A program made the position numbers and the translations under genes. 64,000 nt of DNA from a virus. The notes under the pieces were generated by a model that made no database searches, had not been told where the DNA came from, and saw only the letters and a program-made list of their open reading frames with translations. This document shows, one piece after another, positions 585 through 14,352 of the stretch (positions are counted from its first letter, which is position 1; each line of letters begins with the position of its first letter). The stretch spans positions 96,001 through 160,000 of IMG/VR virus record IMGVR_UViG_3300021197_001787, one strand, 5' to 3'.

Positions 585-639
585 ATTATACACTAAAAAT
601 GGGGGAAAGTCAACAACTAAGTTGTCAAGAGAATGTCAG
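585..639 (-). promoter_or_regulatory. Early promoter cassette P1 (CTGACA-N5-TTGACA-N9-TTGACT-N17-TATAAT)
   Basis: Hexamers at 634-639, 623-628, 608-613; -10 at 585-590; 31-bp block identical to P2/P3. Confidence 0.85.
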
Positions 640-767
640 GTAGTTTGTGACAAGAGGATAAGAGAGAAAAGCATCAGAGCATTGACCCTGATCATTGTCT
701 GGCAAAACTCGCGCGATACCAAGTGAAGGGCGATAGGGTGAAGGTTGGATTGTCCGCGAAGTTTCAT
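636..767 (-). CDS. Small hypothetical protein (43 aa)
   Basis: Manually translated; follows P2; stop TGA lies inside CTGACA of P1. Confidence 0.45.
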   Translation of the reverse strand: MKLRGQSNLHPIALHLVSREFCQTMIRVNALMLFSLILLSQTT

Positions 768-794
768 AATGTTCTTTCCTTGTTTGGTATAACC

Positions 795-850
795 ATTATA
801 CCATTAAAAGCAGGTGATTGTCAACAACTAAGTTGTCAAGAGAATGTCAG
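795..850 (-). promoter_or_regulatory. Early promoter cassette P2
   Basis: Same 31-bp block as P1 (820..850); TTGACA-N18-TATAAT. Confidence 0.85.
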
Positions 851-853
851 GGA

Positions 854-1036
854 CTAGTCAATAGACTCAACACTACAAGTATCTTCATCACCCACATTCT
901 CAATGATATTGCCGTTCCAATCCTCATCTTCTTCGATCTCGTCTACAAGCTCTTGCTGGAACTCAATCAGGCGATCGAGCAGTTCCGAAGCATCGGCGTT
1001 GCGGGCGGTAATGTCAAATGTCAGTCGGTATGTCAT
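854..1036 (-). CDS. Small acidic hypothetical protein
   Basis: 60-aa D/E-rich ORF between P3 and P2. Confidence 0.7.
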   Translation of the reverse strand: MTYRLTFDITARNADASELLDRLIEFQQELVDEIEEDEDWNGNIIENVGDEDTCSVESID

Positions 1037-1063
1037 AGTCTTTTTTCCTTGTTTGGTATAACC

Positions 1064-1118
1064 ATTATACCAGAAATGTGGGGGTAAGTCAACAACTAAG
1101 TTGTCAAGAGAATGTCAG
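1064..1118 (-). promoter_or_regulatory. Early promoter cassette P3
   Basis: Same 31-bp block (1088..1118); TTGACT-N17-TATAAT; -10 flank identical to P2. Confidence 0.85.
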
Positions 1119-1339
1119 TCGTTGCAGCAATCGGGGTGTTCCCAGTTGCTCACTTGCCAGTCGCTAATACTACCGGAGTAATGGAGCGCATCAACGAAGT
1201 TGCTCCAAGCCTCGGAGCGCGCTGGAATATCAACGTGTCCAAGGTTCTGCTCATCCTCTTGAATCATCGGAAGGATAAGATCAATAAACTGCTCGCGGGC
1301 AGTCTCCCAAAGAGTAACGGTGTCGAGTTGTGAAGCCAT
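1115..1339 (-). CDS. Hypothetical protein (MASQLD..., 74 aa)
   Basis: Start reassigned to ATG after AAAGGAGA SD; stop inside CTGACA of P3. Confidence 0.7.
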   Translation of the reverse strand: MASQLDTVTLWETAREQFIDLILPMIQEDEQNLGHVDIPARSEAWSNFVDALHYSGSISDWQVSNWEHPDCCND

Positions 1340-1368
1340 AGAATAATCTCCTTTCTTTCTATACATAT

Positions 1369-1422
1369 AATATAACCCGTTGAGAGGTAAAAGCAAGCAA
1401 GATCGTGTCAGGGAAATGTCAA
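1369..1422 (-). promoter_or_regulatory. Early promoter cassette P4
   Basis: TTGACA-N5-CTGACA-N9-TTGCTT-N16-TATATT. Confidence 0.75.
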
Positions 1423-1595
1423 GAGATTACCATCAAGTTTCGCTCACTAATAACTTCAGTTTTACTATTCGACCACAGGATCATCCACCATACGGTTGAC
1501 CATTGGTGGCTCTCGGCATTTTTGACAACGACGCCCACAGGCGCTGATTTGCGGAACTGATCGCGCCGCCACTTAACAAGATCACCTACTCTCAT
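1419..1595 (-). CDS. KOW/SH3-like mini-protein (MRVGDLVKW..., 58 aa)
   Basis: Manually translated, below ORF-track cutoff; ATGA overlap with 1592..2083; stop within TTGACA of P4. Confidence 0.75.
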   Translation of the reverse strand: MRVGDLVKWRRDQFRKSAPVGVVVKNAESHQWSTVWWMILWSNSKTEVISERNLMVIS

Positions 1596-2083
1596 CCTGC
1601 CACCTCAAGATCGCGTTCTGGGAATGTCGGCCATCCGAATCTTTTACTATCTGACATGTCACCAATCCAAGCGATGCGAGCGAAGCCACAGCCGCCTTCT
1701 GCCATCACAAGCCCAACCTTGCCGGCGTAGCCTTGACGGGTTGCGCGCTTGTTGGTTTTACCTCTCACCAGTTGGCCAACCTTAAACTTTGGTGGCTTCG
1801 GAAGTAGGGACTCGATCATCTGAGTCGCGTTGTCACGGAATGAGCCGGCAAAATAGTCAGACTGCATATCTGAGTAGTCATCACAGCGGCGAACGTGGAA
1901 GTTGCAGGCGTCGGCCTCAAGTTGAGCAGCCGTATCGCTTGCCATCGCTCCGTTAGCCAGGAATGAACCAACATAGCCGTTATGCTGGAAACTCCAGCGC
2001 GTTCCGTTATACTCTACATCAATATCAATACCTTGCTTCTTGAAGTGAGTTTTGATTTTCTTGATTACTGCTTTTACTTTCAT
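1592..2083 (-). CDS. Hypothetical protein with C-terminal KOW/SH3-like domain
   Basis: C-terminal FKVGQLVRGK...GKVGLVM...ERDLEVA matches the family pattern. Confidence 0.75.
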   Translation of the reverse strand: MKVKAVIKKIKTHFKKQGIDIDVEYNGTRWSFQHNGYVGSFLANGAMASDTAAQLEADACNFHVRRCDDYSDMQSDYFAGSFRDNATQMIESLLPKPPKFKVGQLVRGKTNKRATRQGYAGKVGLVMAEGGCGFARIAWIGDMSDSKRFGWPTFPERDLEVAG

Positions 2084-12578: not shown

Positions 12579-12877
12579 TATTCAAACTCTCCTATTTTGA
12601 CATATTTCAAATCGTTCCTAAGAAAATATGCATCTTCTTTGGCCTTGTTAAAACTTCTACCCCAGCGGCCGTGTGGGCCGTCGTTCTGCATCCATTTTAC
12701 ATAGTATCTCTTCTTTTCATTCTGGGATGTCCAAGAATACACCTTTGGTATTGTTTCTATCTGCACAACCAAACCAACGAGCGGGCGCTTCTCAATCCAG
12801 ATCCGTTTTGACCACCTACGCAAGTCATTTGTTTGTAAAGCATAAGACGATAACGTCACTAAATCACCTACTTTCAT
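12578..12877 (-). CDS. KOW/SH3-like protein (MKVGDLVTLS...)
   Basis: Family motif with loop insertions. Confidence 0.75.
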   Translation of the reverse strand: MKVGDLVTLSSYALQTNDLRRWSKRIWIEKRPLVGLVVQIETIPKVYSWTSQNEKKRYYVKWMQNDGPHGRWGRSFNKAKEDAYFLRNDLKYVKIGEFE

Positions 12878-13067
12878 TCAACACCTCCTTATCTAAATAC
12901 ACAACTTCATAGTTTGTTTCGTCTATCACACATCTCATATCATCAACCCATACAACCCACAATCCATCATTGGGAGCCTCATACTCTTCTAGTACAATGC
13001 TAGGGTTGGACCAATCTTCTAAACCAAACCCTATCGGCTTGAAAGATATTAGATCACCAACTTTCAC
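12864..13067 (-). CDS. KOW/SH3-like mini-protein (MKVGDLISF...LNESR)
   Basis: Family motif; 14-nt overlaps. Confidence 0.75.
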   Translation of the reverse strand: MKVGDLISFKPIGFGLEDWSNPSIVLEEYEAPNDGLWVVWVDDMRCVIDETNYEVVYLDKEVLNESR

Positions 13068-13305
13068 TAATCACCTCAAGGGCATTTTCTGCGAAGCCTG
13101 TAGATAAGTGACCATTATCCCACAAAACGTCAACACTCCTGCCGACTCTTGTAGCCCAGCCTTGGTTTTTCACTCTGACTTCTTCTGGCATCCAGCCATC
13201 ATGCAATGCCACTATAATGCCGGTGCGCTTGCCTGTATCTGGCGTCTTTTTGCCCTTGAATACAACAAGGTTACCATTTTGCTTAACAAGATCGCCTAGC
13301 TTCAC
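13054..13305 (-). CDS. KOW/SH3-like mini-protein (MKLGDLVKQ...LEVISESW)
   Basis: Family motif; 14-nt overlap downstream. Confidence 0.75.
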   Translation of the reverse strand: MKLGDLVKQNGNLVVFKGKKTPDTGKRTGIIVALHDGWMPEEVRVKNQGWATRVGRSVDVLWDNGHLSTGFAENALEVISESW

Positions 13306-13474
13306 TTATAACCTCCAACATTTTAATAAATTCAAAAGTAATCTCCCCGTCAAACCATTGAATCTTGGCAACAGATTTGCCGTGATCAATGGAAGTCTCT
13401 TTAGGCCCAATCATGATTACGATACCTCGATGATCGTGGTCGTGCCGGCTATGTACCAAACTTCCGACTCTCAT
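13283..13474 (-). CDS. KOW/SH3-like mini-protein (MRVGSLVHS...LEVISEARRSC)
   Basis: Family motif; tail extended because the junction TGA became CGA. Confidence 0.75.
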   Translation of the reverse strand: MRVGSLVHSRHDHDHRGIVIMIGPKETSIDHGKSVAKIQWFDGEITFEFIKMLEVISEARRSC

Positions 13475-13809
13475 GCTTGCACCATCTGTGGGGTTGCATC
13501 AATGTAGTATGATCGATCTGACATGCGTTCCCAGCATGTCTCAGTCCAGTCACCAAAAATCTTCCAAAGATCCTTACTCTTCATTTCCTTCATCTTATCG
13601 TGGTCCCACTCAAACGCTTCCGTTTGCTCGCCATCGGTGTCGCGATAGGCATAGCACTCATTCATCACTTGCAGGGCAGACTCTTCATCACTGACGCTCA
13701 AGAAGTCCAGTATATCAGCTATAGCCGCCAACGCACAACCCTTCTCCGTCAAGTGGATCGAGGTAAACATTTCGCTCTCGTATGTTCCGTGTAAAACCCA
13801 AAGTTTCAT
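13471..13809 (-). CDS. Hypothetical protein
   Basis: AAGGAGA SD after P15. Confidence 0.7.
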   Translation of the reverse strand: MKLWVLHGTYESEMFTSIHLTEKGCALAAIADILDFLSVSDEESALQVMNECYAYRDTDGEQTEAFEWDHDKMKEMKSKDLWKIFGDWTETCWERMSDRSYYIDATPQMVQA

Positions 13810-13828
13810 TTTTTCTCCTTATACATAT

Positions 13829-13873
13829 AAGATAACACCAATACCCTCAACCGTCAAGTTAAGAGAATGTCAG
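13829..13873 (-). promoter_or_regulatory. Early promoter cassette P15 (short variant)
   Basis: CTGACA starts 16 nt before TTGACG, then N17-TATCTT. Confidence 0.75.
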
Positions 13874-14079
13874 CAAACGAGTTGGATGTGTTCTTTTCTT
13901 ACAGTCTCAGGGTTTCGGCGTTTACCATTTCCAAACCAAAAGATAATCCTCCAGCCCGCGTCTTCGGAGTCTTCCGGGGGCAATAGGCCGGTCATCCCGG
14001 GATGGGCTTCGTATGCGATAATAATCCCCATTGATTGTCCGGGCCGCGCGGTGCATTGTACCAAATCACCTACTTTCAT
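13870..14079 (-). CDS. KOW/SH3-like mini-protein (MKVGDLVQC...ETVRKEHIQLVC)
   Basis: Family motif; stop inside CTGACA of P15. Confidence 0.75.
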   Translation of the reverse strand: MKVGDLVQCTARPGQSMGIIIAYEAHPGMTGLLPPEDSEDAGWRIIFWFGNGKRRNPETVRKEHIQLVC

Positions 14080-14082
14080 TAT

Positions 14083-14286
14083 CTACCTGCCCGCATTTCG
14101 TGCGTCTTGCATGCTGCCCACGTACTGATATGCACCCTTGTTATACAATGGGGCTGTACACTTCTTTCTATGCTCGGAGGTTTCTTGTGCGTACTGCTCA
14201 CCACACTCCAAACAATGCTCATACCCCAAAGCTCTACGCTTGGGGTTGAACTCTTCGCCGCAGTCAAAACATTGTGGCCAATCCAT
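14083..14286 (-). CDS. DksA/TraR-like C4 zinc-finger protein
   Basis: CFDCGEEFNPKRRALGYEHCLEC resembles the CxxCG..I...R....P....CxxC pattern. Confidence 0.6.
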   Translation of the reverse strand: MDWPQCFDCGEEFNPKRRALGYEHCLECGEQYAQETSEHRKKCTAPLYNKGAYQYVGSMQDARNAGR

Positions 14287-14307
14287 CTCTTCTCTCCTTA
14301 CCCTTAT

Positions 14308-14352
14308 AAGATAACGCCGCTGTCGCTAAACGTCAAGTCAAAAAGATGTCAA
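14308..14352 (-). promoter_or_regulatory. Early promoter cassette P16 (short variant)
   Basis: TTGACA-N5-TTGACT fused to TTGACG-N17-TATCTT. Confidence 0.75.

Follow-up and report, generated by a model that had tools for sequence, protein, structure and literature searches.

The genome of an uncultured marine phage (194,231 bp) carries sixteen early promoters, P1 to P16, all on the minus strand, and directly repeated YTGACA-type boxes stand at defined distances upstream of their -35 elements. The rigid geometry, the conservation throughout the phage family, the co-varying box allele and a profile unlike that of the -35 element point to a single sequence-specific factor, and the early genes as a block probably have one dedicated DNA-binding protein as their common regulator. 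The boxes are putatively the sites of one protein aiding the host sigma70-type polymerase, with a host protein of the OmpR/RpaB type as the favoured reader, a reading to which we give about an even chance. Positions below refer to the window, i.e., the whole 64,000-nucleotide stretch analysed, unless genome positions are indicated.

Layout of the early-promoter cassettes

When each promoter is read individually, the distal box of P1-P6 and P8-P14 starts at -26 and the proximal box at -15, counted from the first base of the -35 element. The -35 and -10 elements are separated by 16-18 nt, and the -10 hexamer is TATAAT, TATATT or TATCTT. The conserved box unit spans 7-8 bp (C-Y-T-G-A-C-A-a/t) rather than 6 bp.

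In the following, the distal box is given first, then the proximal box, the -35 element (with its position) and the spacer. P1 (585..639) consists of CTGACA (639-634), TTGACA (628-623), TTGACT (613-608), N17 and TATAAT (590-585). P2 (795..861) combines CTGACA (850-845), TTGACA (839-834), TTGACA (824), N18 and TATAAT, and it includes an additional third box, TTGACT (861-856). P3 (1064..1118) has CTGACA, TTGACA, TTGACT (1092), N17 and TATAAT. From P4 to P14, the -10 hexamer is TATATT. P4 (1369..1422) contains TTGACA, CTGACA, TTGCTT (1396) and N16; P5 (2282..2335), whose gene encodes the MIKVG small protein, contains CTGACA, TTGACA, TTGCGT (2309) and N16; and P6 (3163..3217) contains TTGACA, CTGACA, TTGACG (3191) and N17. 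P7 (4735..4778) lacks the distal box and retains the proximal TTGACA alone (4778-4773), followed by TTGACG (4763) and N17. P8 (6522..6575), with TTGACA, TTGACA, TTGCAA (6549) and N16, drives the operon of a 415-aa HNH-like gene. P9 (8118..8171), with TTGACA, CTGACA, TTGACG (8145) and N16, drives a MoxR/CobS-like ATPase gene (6988-8067), and P10 (8422..8476), with TTGACA, TTGACA, TTGACG (8450) and N17, drives tRNA-Leu with anticodon TAA (8328..8413, minus strand). P11 (9385..9438) shows TTGACA, TTGACA, TTGCTA (9412) and N16. P12 (10305..10359), upstream of the MQVGSLV small protein gene, is exceptional in its distal box ATGACA and its weak -35 TGGCGC (10333); its proximal box is TTGACA, and after N17 its -10 is TG-extended. 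P13 (11475..11528) has TTGACA, TTGACA, TTGCAT (11502) and N16, and P14 (12187..12241), serving the MKVGDMV small protein gene, has TTGACG, TTGACA, TTGACA (12215) and N17. P15 (13829..13873) and P16 (14308..14352) show a short architecture, in which the boxes lie 10 nt nearer the -35, with the distal box (CTGACA and TTGACA, respectively) at -16 and a degenerate proximal box (CTTAAC and TTTGAC) abutting the -35; both continue with TTGACG (13857 and 14336), N17 and TATCTT.

The core promoters look strong by themselves, with at least five of six -35 matches in 76% and a TG-extended -10 in many, so an activator may be dispensable. A four-box array that has no promoter adjoins a G/C hairpin.

Restriction to the early gene block

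The pattern YTGACA-N5-YTGACA, searched with at most one mismatch, occurs 16 times in the window, 15 times on the minus strand between 623 and 14352. By comparison, 100 shuffles gave a mean of 1.58 matches and a maximum of 5, none attaining 16. In the full genome, all 18 minus-strand tandems fall within a 16-kb block (genome 94,544-110,352) and comprise the window's 15 plus three just beyond its edge; the rest of the genome holds only 2 tandem matches. The boxes are absent from the promoter-like sites at genome 135979, 131137, 11043 and 6632 (dnaE and other genes) and at window 15675.

These readouts agree with what an earlier note on this DNA had described, namely 16 early promoters with fixed-geometry repeats upstream of the -35, a shift of about one helical turn in P15 and P16, a single repeat in P7, and an upstream block that is conserved while the spacer (16-18 nt) varies. 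Its statement that non-early promoters are devoid of tandem repeats holds for dnaE and the other sites inspected.

Conservation and variation among related marine phages

Among 80 related marine contigs, 596 tandems were counted on the coding strand versus 23 on the opposite strand, and the distance from TGACA to TGACA is 11 nt in 445 cases, 12 nt in 26 and 10 nt in 15. In 529 promoters picked irrespective of boxes, box starts cluster at -26 (234) and -15 (260) from the -35. Box positions are constant to within 1 nt in the relatives, while flanks and spacers diverge. Cross-anchored profiles assign 1.3-2.0 bits to seven positions of the proximal box and at most 0.5 bits to the spacers. At the orthologous ATPase promoter (P9), compared in about 60 relatives, the boxes are kept in place amid unrelated flanks and spacers, with TTTACA and TTAACA as box variants. 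Judged by these profiles and by the orthologous promoter, purifying selection acts on the boxes only.

Two subclades carry a GTGACA allele, arranged as GTGACA-N4-GTGAC with a 10-bp period and found 27 times on one strand versus once on the other. In these lineages, half-sites and period shift in concert, while the -35 remains TTGAC. The offset between the pair and the -35 is 15 or 5 in both alleles, i.e., a shift quantised by 10 bp, which is typical of factors obliged to face RNA polymerase. In relatives devoid of boxes, the corresponding promoters have A-tracts instead (AAAAAAAGTTC-TTGACA).

A proposed host reader

A single sequence-specific protein would bind the boxes as a head-to-tail pair on one helix face, just upstream of the -35, and would cover roughly -61 to -45 (-51 to -35 where the architecture is short), where other promoters have their UP element. 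Once bound, it would most likely assist the host sigma70-type RNA polymerase via the alpha C-terminal domain or sigma region 4, and the boxes would thereby fix the strength and timing of the entire early block as one regulon. Like OmpR/PhoB-family sites, the boxes are short half-site direct repeats spaced by 10-11 bp on one helix face. The favoured candidate is an OmpR/RpaB-type protein already present in the host, and a virion-delivered one seems less likely, since early promoters fire before phage proteins exist and the phage has no OmpR-type winged helix, the Trans_reg_C domain not being found in its genome. Protein binding at the boxes, its activating role and its host origin are what we infer here.

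The earlier note had proposed a dedicated regulator of the early region, possibly of the PhoB kind. The first part stands, as one factor is probable and the sites have an OmpR/PhoB-type architecture (11-bp direct repeats centred at about -53); the specific PhoB identity is not retained, given that TGTCA-N6-TGTCA occurs only on the template strand and that the -35 is kept 9 nt downstream of the proximal box.

Regarding the host, no genome with more than one exact tandem was found among 401 sampled Gammaproteobacteria; 20 of them hold a single exact tandem, which in 7 of the 20 lies in the rpmB start codon region. The phage GroEL shares no more than 43-48% identity with bacterial GroEL proteins. 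A Microcystis phage capsid is among the closest capsids from cultured phages (47% identity). The host is perhaps not a cyanobacterium, since psbA (PF00124) was not found in this genome or in 12 complete relatives (13 genomes).

Alternative readings of the boxes

The reader could instead be encoded by the phage, early or virion-delivered, and could either boost the early promoters or silence them later, a serious possibility, albeit one we consider less probable than a host reader. Its candidates are c107, a 107-aa early protein (genome 95391-95714, minus strand); P0002, of 115 aa (32040..32387, minus strand), RHH-like by sequence pattern only; and P0001, of 82 aa (31795..32043, minus strand), with a Zn-ribbon-like Cys-rich N-terminus and a sigma70 region 4 HTH, whose start is overlapped by the P0002 frame by 4 nt. 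The allele switch, affecting both sequence and spacing, recalls heteroimmune P2-like phages, in which repressors have co-evolved with their direct-repeat operators (PMC1904268); occurring between close relatives, the switch is as compatible with a phage-encoded partner as with a host switch. The c107 family is present in 45 of 55 YTGACA loci, in 2 of 5 GTGACA loci (both box-rich) and in none of 19 box-less loci. Four complete genomes (G002, G004, G005 and G015) lack it, as does G016, which is 75% complete, and GTGACA-group genomes without c107 retain few boxes (2 among 35 promoters in G002). However, G008, a complete genome, lacks c107 despite its 8 exact tandems, and c107 is itself part of the hyperplastic early block, so the correlation could reflect linkage and nothing else. 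Moreover, its structural model (pLDDT 81.5) gives no informative fold match (best Z 4.1).

As for P0001 and P0002, which the earlier note had suggested as binding partners, co-variation does not support them: both are present in all relatives, including every box-less one, and the residues with which they would read DNA do not vary with box presence. A distinct P0002 beta-strand (KSIRFWVY) does occur exactly in the GTGACA group (L055/L058), but L060 carries box-type residues despite its A-tract promoters. The promoterless four-box array is more in keeping with an operator-binding or architectural protein than with a simple activator. A protein made after infection cannot serve the first round of early transcription.

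A broader version, which we regard as unlikely, is that a large family of abundant ocean phages has swapped its early UP elements for a portable twin-box module with a dedicated, maybe c107-like, reader. If true, a new small phage protein may serve as this reader, possibly one that is delivered or made immediately, and co-evolution of module and reader (YTGACA at 11 bp, GTGACA at 10 bp, A-tract) would yield lineage-specific 'private' early-promoter codes, somewhat resembling immunity groups, in a lytic T4-type phage.

It is quite improbable that the boxes are extra -35-like landing sites for host sigma70 region 4, acting as a holoenzyme antenna or decoy that concentrates polymerase locally. 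Their consensus, cTTGACAt, is that of a textbook -35 with its usual flanks, and they share the orientation of the real promoters that they immediately precede. Nevertheless, their composition differs from that of the true -35 in the same cassettes: C at position 0 has a frequency of 0.94 versus 0.43, and positions 4-6 (A, C, A) reach 1.0, 0.99 and 0.99 versus 0.63, 0.66 and 0.25, the last -35 position being T or A with 0.19 bits. The third box position of the main allele is G at 0.84-0.87 and T at 0.08. CTGACA and GTGACA variants are frequent in boxes and not in -35 elements, and where period and half-site change together the -35 does not follow. For 30 of the 31 boxes examined, a -10-like hexamer 16-18 nt downstream is lacking; the sole exception is the P7 proximal box (4778), paired with TAAACT. 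The idea that each hexamer is simply an independent -35 thus fails, as does the assignment to sigma70 -35 elements, which are conserved above all at TTG and only weakly at positions 4-6. Better conserved than the -35, distinct in profile and with one -10 partner in all, the boxes are better explained as protein sites than as spare -35s.

Binding of host PhoB to the boxes as an opposite-strand Pho box, linking early expression to phosphate status, is highly improbable. The reverse complement, TGTCAAG-N4-TGTCAAG, shares the TGTCA core and 11-bp period of the E. coli Pho box, and marine cyanophages are known to carry genes that respond to phosphate. The E. coli Pho box, however, reads CTGTCAT on the coding strand and substitutes for the -35, whereas the present sites are inverted relative to transcription and lie upstream of a -35 that is not replaced; with orientation and position wrong, the Pho-box interpretation is weak. 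The TTTACA and TTAACA variants also depart from TGTCA, and the period of the GTGACA allele is 10 bp. Read along the coding strand, YT[G/T/A]ACA bears a closer resemblance to half-sites of the OmpR/RpaB type.

That no protein reads the boxes, and that they hitch-hike in a promoter cassette spread by duplication and recombination like the PeSL cassettes of T4-type phages, is hardly credible, for although P1-P3 share an identical 30-nt stretch and the cassettes occupy a hyperplastic small-gene block, as PeSLs do (PMC4122927), more than 300 distinct cassettes concentrate their information in the two boxes with near-random spacers and flanks, the boxes persist at orthologous promoters within unrelated flanks, and PeSL-type stem-loop terminators are not enriched (19 found versus 13.4 +/- 3.6 in shuffles), none lying regularly upstream of boxes.

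Comparison with known systems

The favoured host reader has its closest parallels among OmpR-family response regulators, whose sites, such as those of OmpR at ompF and ompC, stand in an activating position. HLR1, the RpaB motif of cyanobacteria, is (G/T)TTACA(T/A)(T/A)-N2-(G/T)TTACA(T/A)(T/A), and RpaB activates transcription from sites whose centre lies about 50 nt before the start site (PMC6525291). The boxes likewise consist of two xTxACA-type direct half-sites of 6-8 bp, in coding orientation, with a 10-11-bp period, and the pair is centred about 50 nt before the start. The GTGACA allele, GTGACATT-NN-GTGACA, is one base apart from HLR1 per half-site. The main allele was rejected as an HLR1, as its period is 11 bp (CYTGACAtt, linker of 3 nt) and its third position is G, the 10-bp period being confined to the GTGACA allele. 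In contrast to RpaB and OmpR sites, those described here mark a whole phage early regulon and not host genes.

With the UP element, the alpha C-terminal domain site of strong sigma70 and T4-type early promoters, the boxes share their location (-40 to -60) and appear interchangeable, A-tracts being found at the orthologous promoters of box-less sister phages. They were not classed as UP elements, being G/C-containing, sequence-specific direct repeats (heptamers) and not A/T tracts. PeSLs of T4-type phages (PMC2839356, PMC4122927) are similar in that many near-identical sigma70-type early promoters, with a lineage-specific consensus, run through a hyperplastic small-gene block, here sixteen cassettes within 14 kb of small genes. 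The present cassettes differ by having no associated stem-loop terminator and by an additional twin-box module that is missing from PeSL descriptions.

Two other phage systems offer precedents. The early promoters of phi29 and Nf carry Spo0A boxes (PMC2731898), an example of a host response regulator at phage early promoters, and the direct-repeat operators of P2-like repressors co-evolve in sequence and spacing with a phage protein (PMC1904268). Both of these systems repress, through few sites that overlap or flank the core promoter, whereas the boxes described here occupy one fixed upstream position at about 20 promoters.

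Twin boxes at the early promoters

The window corresponds to positions 96,001-160,000 of one viral contig of 194,231 bp. Searching it for YTGACA-N5-YTGACA with at most one mismatch yields 16 matches, against a mean of 1.58 and a maximum of 5 in the shuffled window; the minus strand holds 15 of the 16, within 623-14352. In the whole genome, 18 minus-strand tandems all lie inside 94,544-110,352, and just two are found elsewhere. The geometry claimed in the earlier note for the minus-strand early promoters P1-P16, with paired hexamers at fixed distances upstream of the -35, is borne out when each promoter is read individually. 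At P1-P6 and P8-P14, the two half-sites (CYTGACA, hereafter boxes) start 26 and 15 nt ahead of the first -35 base. P7 has the proximal box alone, and at P15 and P16 the pair is shifted 10 nt toward the -35, with a degenerate proximal copy that abuts it. The -35/-10 spacer ranges from 16 to 18 nt across the early promoters, and a short conserved leader with an AAGGAG Shine-Dalgarno sequence lies downstream; the product of P10 is a tRNA-Leu(TAA), not a protein gene. Promoters elsewhere had been said to lack the tandem repeats, and the other sigma70-like sites in the genome are indeed box-free.

The initial transcribed region past each -10 is also conserved (TATATT-ATA[a/t]GTATAGAAAGGAGA, window 585-14352), which makes the leaders just 15-25 nt or so in length up to the start codon. 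Just past the early block, the minus strand carries a perfect TTGACA-N17-TATAAT without boxes (window 15647-15675).

Some 1.4 kb ahead of the window, the minus strand carries an array of four boxes (TTGACA, CTGACA, TTGACA, TTGACA) at genome positions 94,520-94,583 (L231:2520-2583, L231 being the stretch that holds both this array and the c107 gene discussed below). Its boxes are spaced by 11, 12, and 11 nt, it has no -10, and the palindrome GGGGGTACCCCCC with a C-tract comes directly after it. A comparable G/C hairpin with C-tract occurs without boxes in the related genomes G002 (55,523) and G005 (177,130), and in the related locus L021 it is preceded by GTGACAGCATGTGAC. The array and a twin-box cassette (genome 94,995-95,011) flank about 650 nt without a convincing gene, rich in short ACACTA/TATAG-type repeats (genome 94.5-95.2 kb, L231:2540-3200), a possible origin or non-coding RNA locus.

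The phage genome and its relatives

The larger genes of this genome all lie on the minus strand. The contig codes for a Gp23-family capsid protein, whose closest cultured relatives are those of Flavobacterium phage immuto (45%), Microcystis phage Mel-JY01 (47%), and Rhodothermus phage RM378 (43%), as well as for a DnaE-type polymerase, GroEL, ClpP, a GMP-reductase-like enzyme, and six tRNAs. No close DNA-level relative was found among 50,697 deposited phage genomes. At least 235 related IMG/VR contigs carry the early-region ATPase, a MoxR/CobS-like protein transcribed from P9; 80 of these were compared, with protein identities of 62-87%, several being complete genomes of 185-205 kb. The host was not identified by a GroEL scan of bacterial genomes, by psbA, or by the nearest capsid relatives.

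Conservation across the family

With each of the 80 related loci oriented by its ATPase gene, 596 tandems are counted on the coding strand vs. 23 on the opposite one. Without any pre-selection, successive TGACA copies on the coding strand are 11 nt apart in 445 cases, 12 nt in 26, and 10 nt in 15; a further spacing of 15 nt (63 cases) corresponds to the step from the proximal box to a -35 that reads TTGACA. A set of 529 distinct promoter-like windows was selected solely on -35, -10, and Shine-Dalgarno sequence. In these, boxes begin at -26 in 234 cases (31 more at -25) and at -15 in 260 (23 more at -14), other positions being nearly empty.

Base frequencies were obtained by cross-anchoring, one box serving as the anchor and the other as the read-out. 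The proximal box reads C 0.94, Y, T 0.98, G 0.87, A 1.0, C 0.99, A 0.99, a 0.70 (n = 307), and the distal box C 0.70, Y, T 0.94, G 0.84, A 0.93, C 0.92, A 0.89, T, T (n = 331). The real -35 reads T 0.87, T 0.72, G 0.76, A 0.63, C 0.66, then T 0.47 or A 0.25 (n = 404), so the boxes are conserved more strongly than their own -35 and have a distinct profile. At the orthologous ATPase promoter, both boxes are held in position in about 45 distinct box-bearing relatives, among which the upstream flank and both spacers are dissimilar; the half-site variants TTTACA, TTAACA, and CTGACA are tolerated there. Judged by these comparisons, the boxes are under selection across the phage family.

Natural variants

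Five loci carry GTGACA-N4-GTGAC instead (27 vs. 1 by strand), half-sites and period having changed together, and this pair sits directly against the -35 or else 10 nt farther upstream. In a quick maximum-likelihood tree of the ATPase, rooted at the midpoint, the five form two separate groups inside a large YTGACA clade. At the same promoters, a second, mostly box-less clade has A-tracts immediately ahead of the -35. L060, a locus of the box clade, likewise has A-tracts (AAAAAAAGTTC-TTGACA or similar) at 18 of the 25 promoters of its contig, and the L069/L079 pair has YTGACA boxes despite its position in the box-less clade. G002, a complete genome of the GTGACA group, has tandems at just 2 of 35 early promoters. 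A second recurrent upstream element, GACAAAGATCGTAGC, is shared by at least four of its early promoters (L170-L171, 40-52 kb); it ends about 9-10 nt ahead of the -35, and the -10 of those promoters is TACATT.

In G012, an A-tract relative, a signal of CTGAC at 10 bp was rejected as a box allele, being pentapeptide-repeat coding sequence. The early region of this genome (18-33 kb, L329-L330) holds several pentapeptide-repeat genes (GADLTGADL...), which mimic a DNA repeat of 10-nt period.

Candidate readers of the boxes

That a dedicated box-binding regulator controls the early regulon is probable. No OmpR-type winged helix was found in the phage. Phylogenetic profiling compared 416 minus-strand ORFs of this genome, each 45 aa or longer, with 15 related genomes or contigs. 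Few genes track the box pattern, and none of these has a DNA-binding Pfam match; they comprise a Dam-type methylase, a thioredoxin-like protein, and some small unknowns. The box-bearing genomes have the Dam-type N6-adenine methyltransferase (window 34388-34876; PF05869, E 3.6e-33), as do G002, G011, and G012, and the four genomes of the box-less clade lack it.

A good correlation is that of c107, a 107-aa early protein singled out by this profiling and encoded on the minus strand just outside the window (genome 95391-95714, L231:3391-3714). Its family, with the motif MKYY[IV]S.T...LGI.NLH...RR[WY]GKL.R..NK.RK..T.AD[VI]A, occurs in 45 of 55 YTGACA loci and both box-rich GTGACA loci (47 of 60 box loci); not one of 19 box-less loci has it. 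Nevertheless, the complete genome G008 has eight exact tandems but no c107, which counts against it as the reader. Linkage could account for the correlation, the c107 gene being itself part of the same hyperplastic block. Its structural model is confident (pLDDT 81.5, beta-beta-alpha-beta-alpha-alpha) and matched no known fold above noise.

The earlier note had proposed the products of an overlapping gene pair (window 31795-32387). P0001 (82 aa) combines a Cys-rich N-terminus with a sigma70 region 4 domain (PF04545, E 1.3e-10), and aligns with region 4 of Thermus sigmaA (1ku3, 1ku7, 1rio); its gene start overlaps the end of the P0002 gene by 4 nt. P0002 (115 aa), without a Pfam or PDB match, has an N-terminus that appears ribbon-helix-helix-like from its sequence pattern alone. 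The pair is kept in every relative examined, at 29-96% identity, and no homologue was found among deposited phages (50,697 genomes for P0001). A role as box readers did not hold up, as both proteins are present in every lineage, box-less ones included. Across the orthologues of 21 relatives with an established box type, neither the recognition helix SFARVKQIE nor the beta-strand KRIVFT follows box presence: L060 has the box-type residues RRIVFTEN and SFARVKQIE, yet A-tract promoters, and L059 and L069 have divergent strands, yet boxes. A distinct strand, KSIRFWVY, is limited to the GTGACA group L055/L058 and represents a single event. A phage-encoded reader is less probable than a host-encoded one.

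Among host proteins, RpaB with its HLR1 site is appealing by sequence but was set aside, since the host is probably not cyanobacterial. None of 401 sampled Gammaproteobacteria has more than one exact tandem per genome. Twenty single matches were obtained, one of them in the unpublished genome G075, on which no claim rests. The recurrent match, C[CT]TGACA[TG]A[CT]TCTTGACA (L387-L393), is a trap for box-motif scans: it owes its recurrence to the rpmB start ATGTCAAGAGTATGTCAGG (MSRVCQ, opposite strand), of which it is the reverse complement.

Proposed mechanism and alternatives

OmpR-family activators act as head-to-tail pairs facing RNA polymerase. The 11-bp direct repeats, the xTxACA half-site in coding orientation, a pair centre near -53 (or -43 after the 10-bp shift), and the interchangeability with A-tracts all point to a factor that would bind as such a pair and would have to face the polymerase. 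RpaB sites centred about 50 nt upstream are activating (PMC6525291). As early promoters are needed at time zero, a pre-existing host protein is favoured, and the chances are about even that the reader is a pre-existing, probably host-encoded, activator of OmpR type. The promoter-less four-box array beside a conserved G/C hairpin at genome 94,544-94,583 and the apparent intrinsic strength of the core promoters hint at a possible further role of the protein, architectural or titrating.

Other readings of the repeats fare less well. The hexamers are not independent -35 elements: the sole one with a -10-like partner is the proximal box of P7, and the box profile is unlike that of the real -35. Nor are the boxes mere relics of cassette duplication, given that the information is concentrated in them rather than in the remaining cassette. 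PeSL cassettes combine a promoter and a terminator (PMC4122927); strict cassettes of this type were rejected, terminator-like hairpins showing no enrichment (19 vs. 13.4 +/- 3.6 in shuffles). The resemblance to a Pho box was the weakest part of the earlier note, because TGTCA is on the wrong strand and the boxes leave the -35 in place.

Significance and comparison with known systems

Lytic phage takeover of the host hinges on early promoters and, to our knowledge, almost nothing is known about those of uncultured marine phages. A precise, family-wide cis-regulatory code, namely a heptamer, an 11-bp period, and fixed -26 and -15 offsets, is now available for abundant ocean phages of 185-205 kb. 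The module is of interest because it is family-wide, precisely defined, and provided with natural allelic controls: the 10-bp allele, the A-tract replacements, and the decaying boxes constitute natural 'mutants' for comparison. The code makes testable the identity of the box-reading protein, whether a phage can exchange a UP element for a factor-dependent module, and whether the module acts as a reporter of host physiology. The motif is also of use for marking early regions and transcription units when metagenomic phage contigs are annotated.

The literature searched contained nothing like the twin-box module. The nearest published systems are PeSL cassettes, the Spo0A boxes of phi29 and Nf, and the direct-repeat operators of P2-like phages; the module is unlike all of these, and belongs with factor-binding sites upstream of sigma70 promoters.
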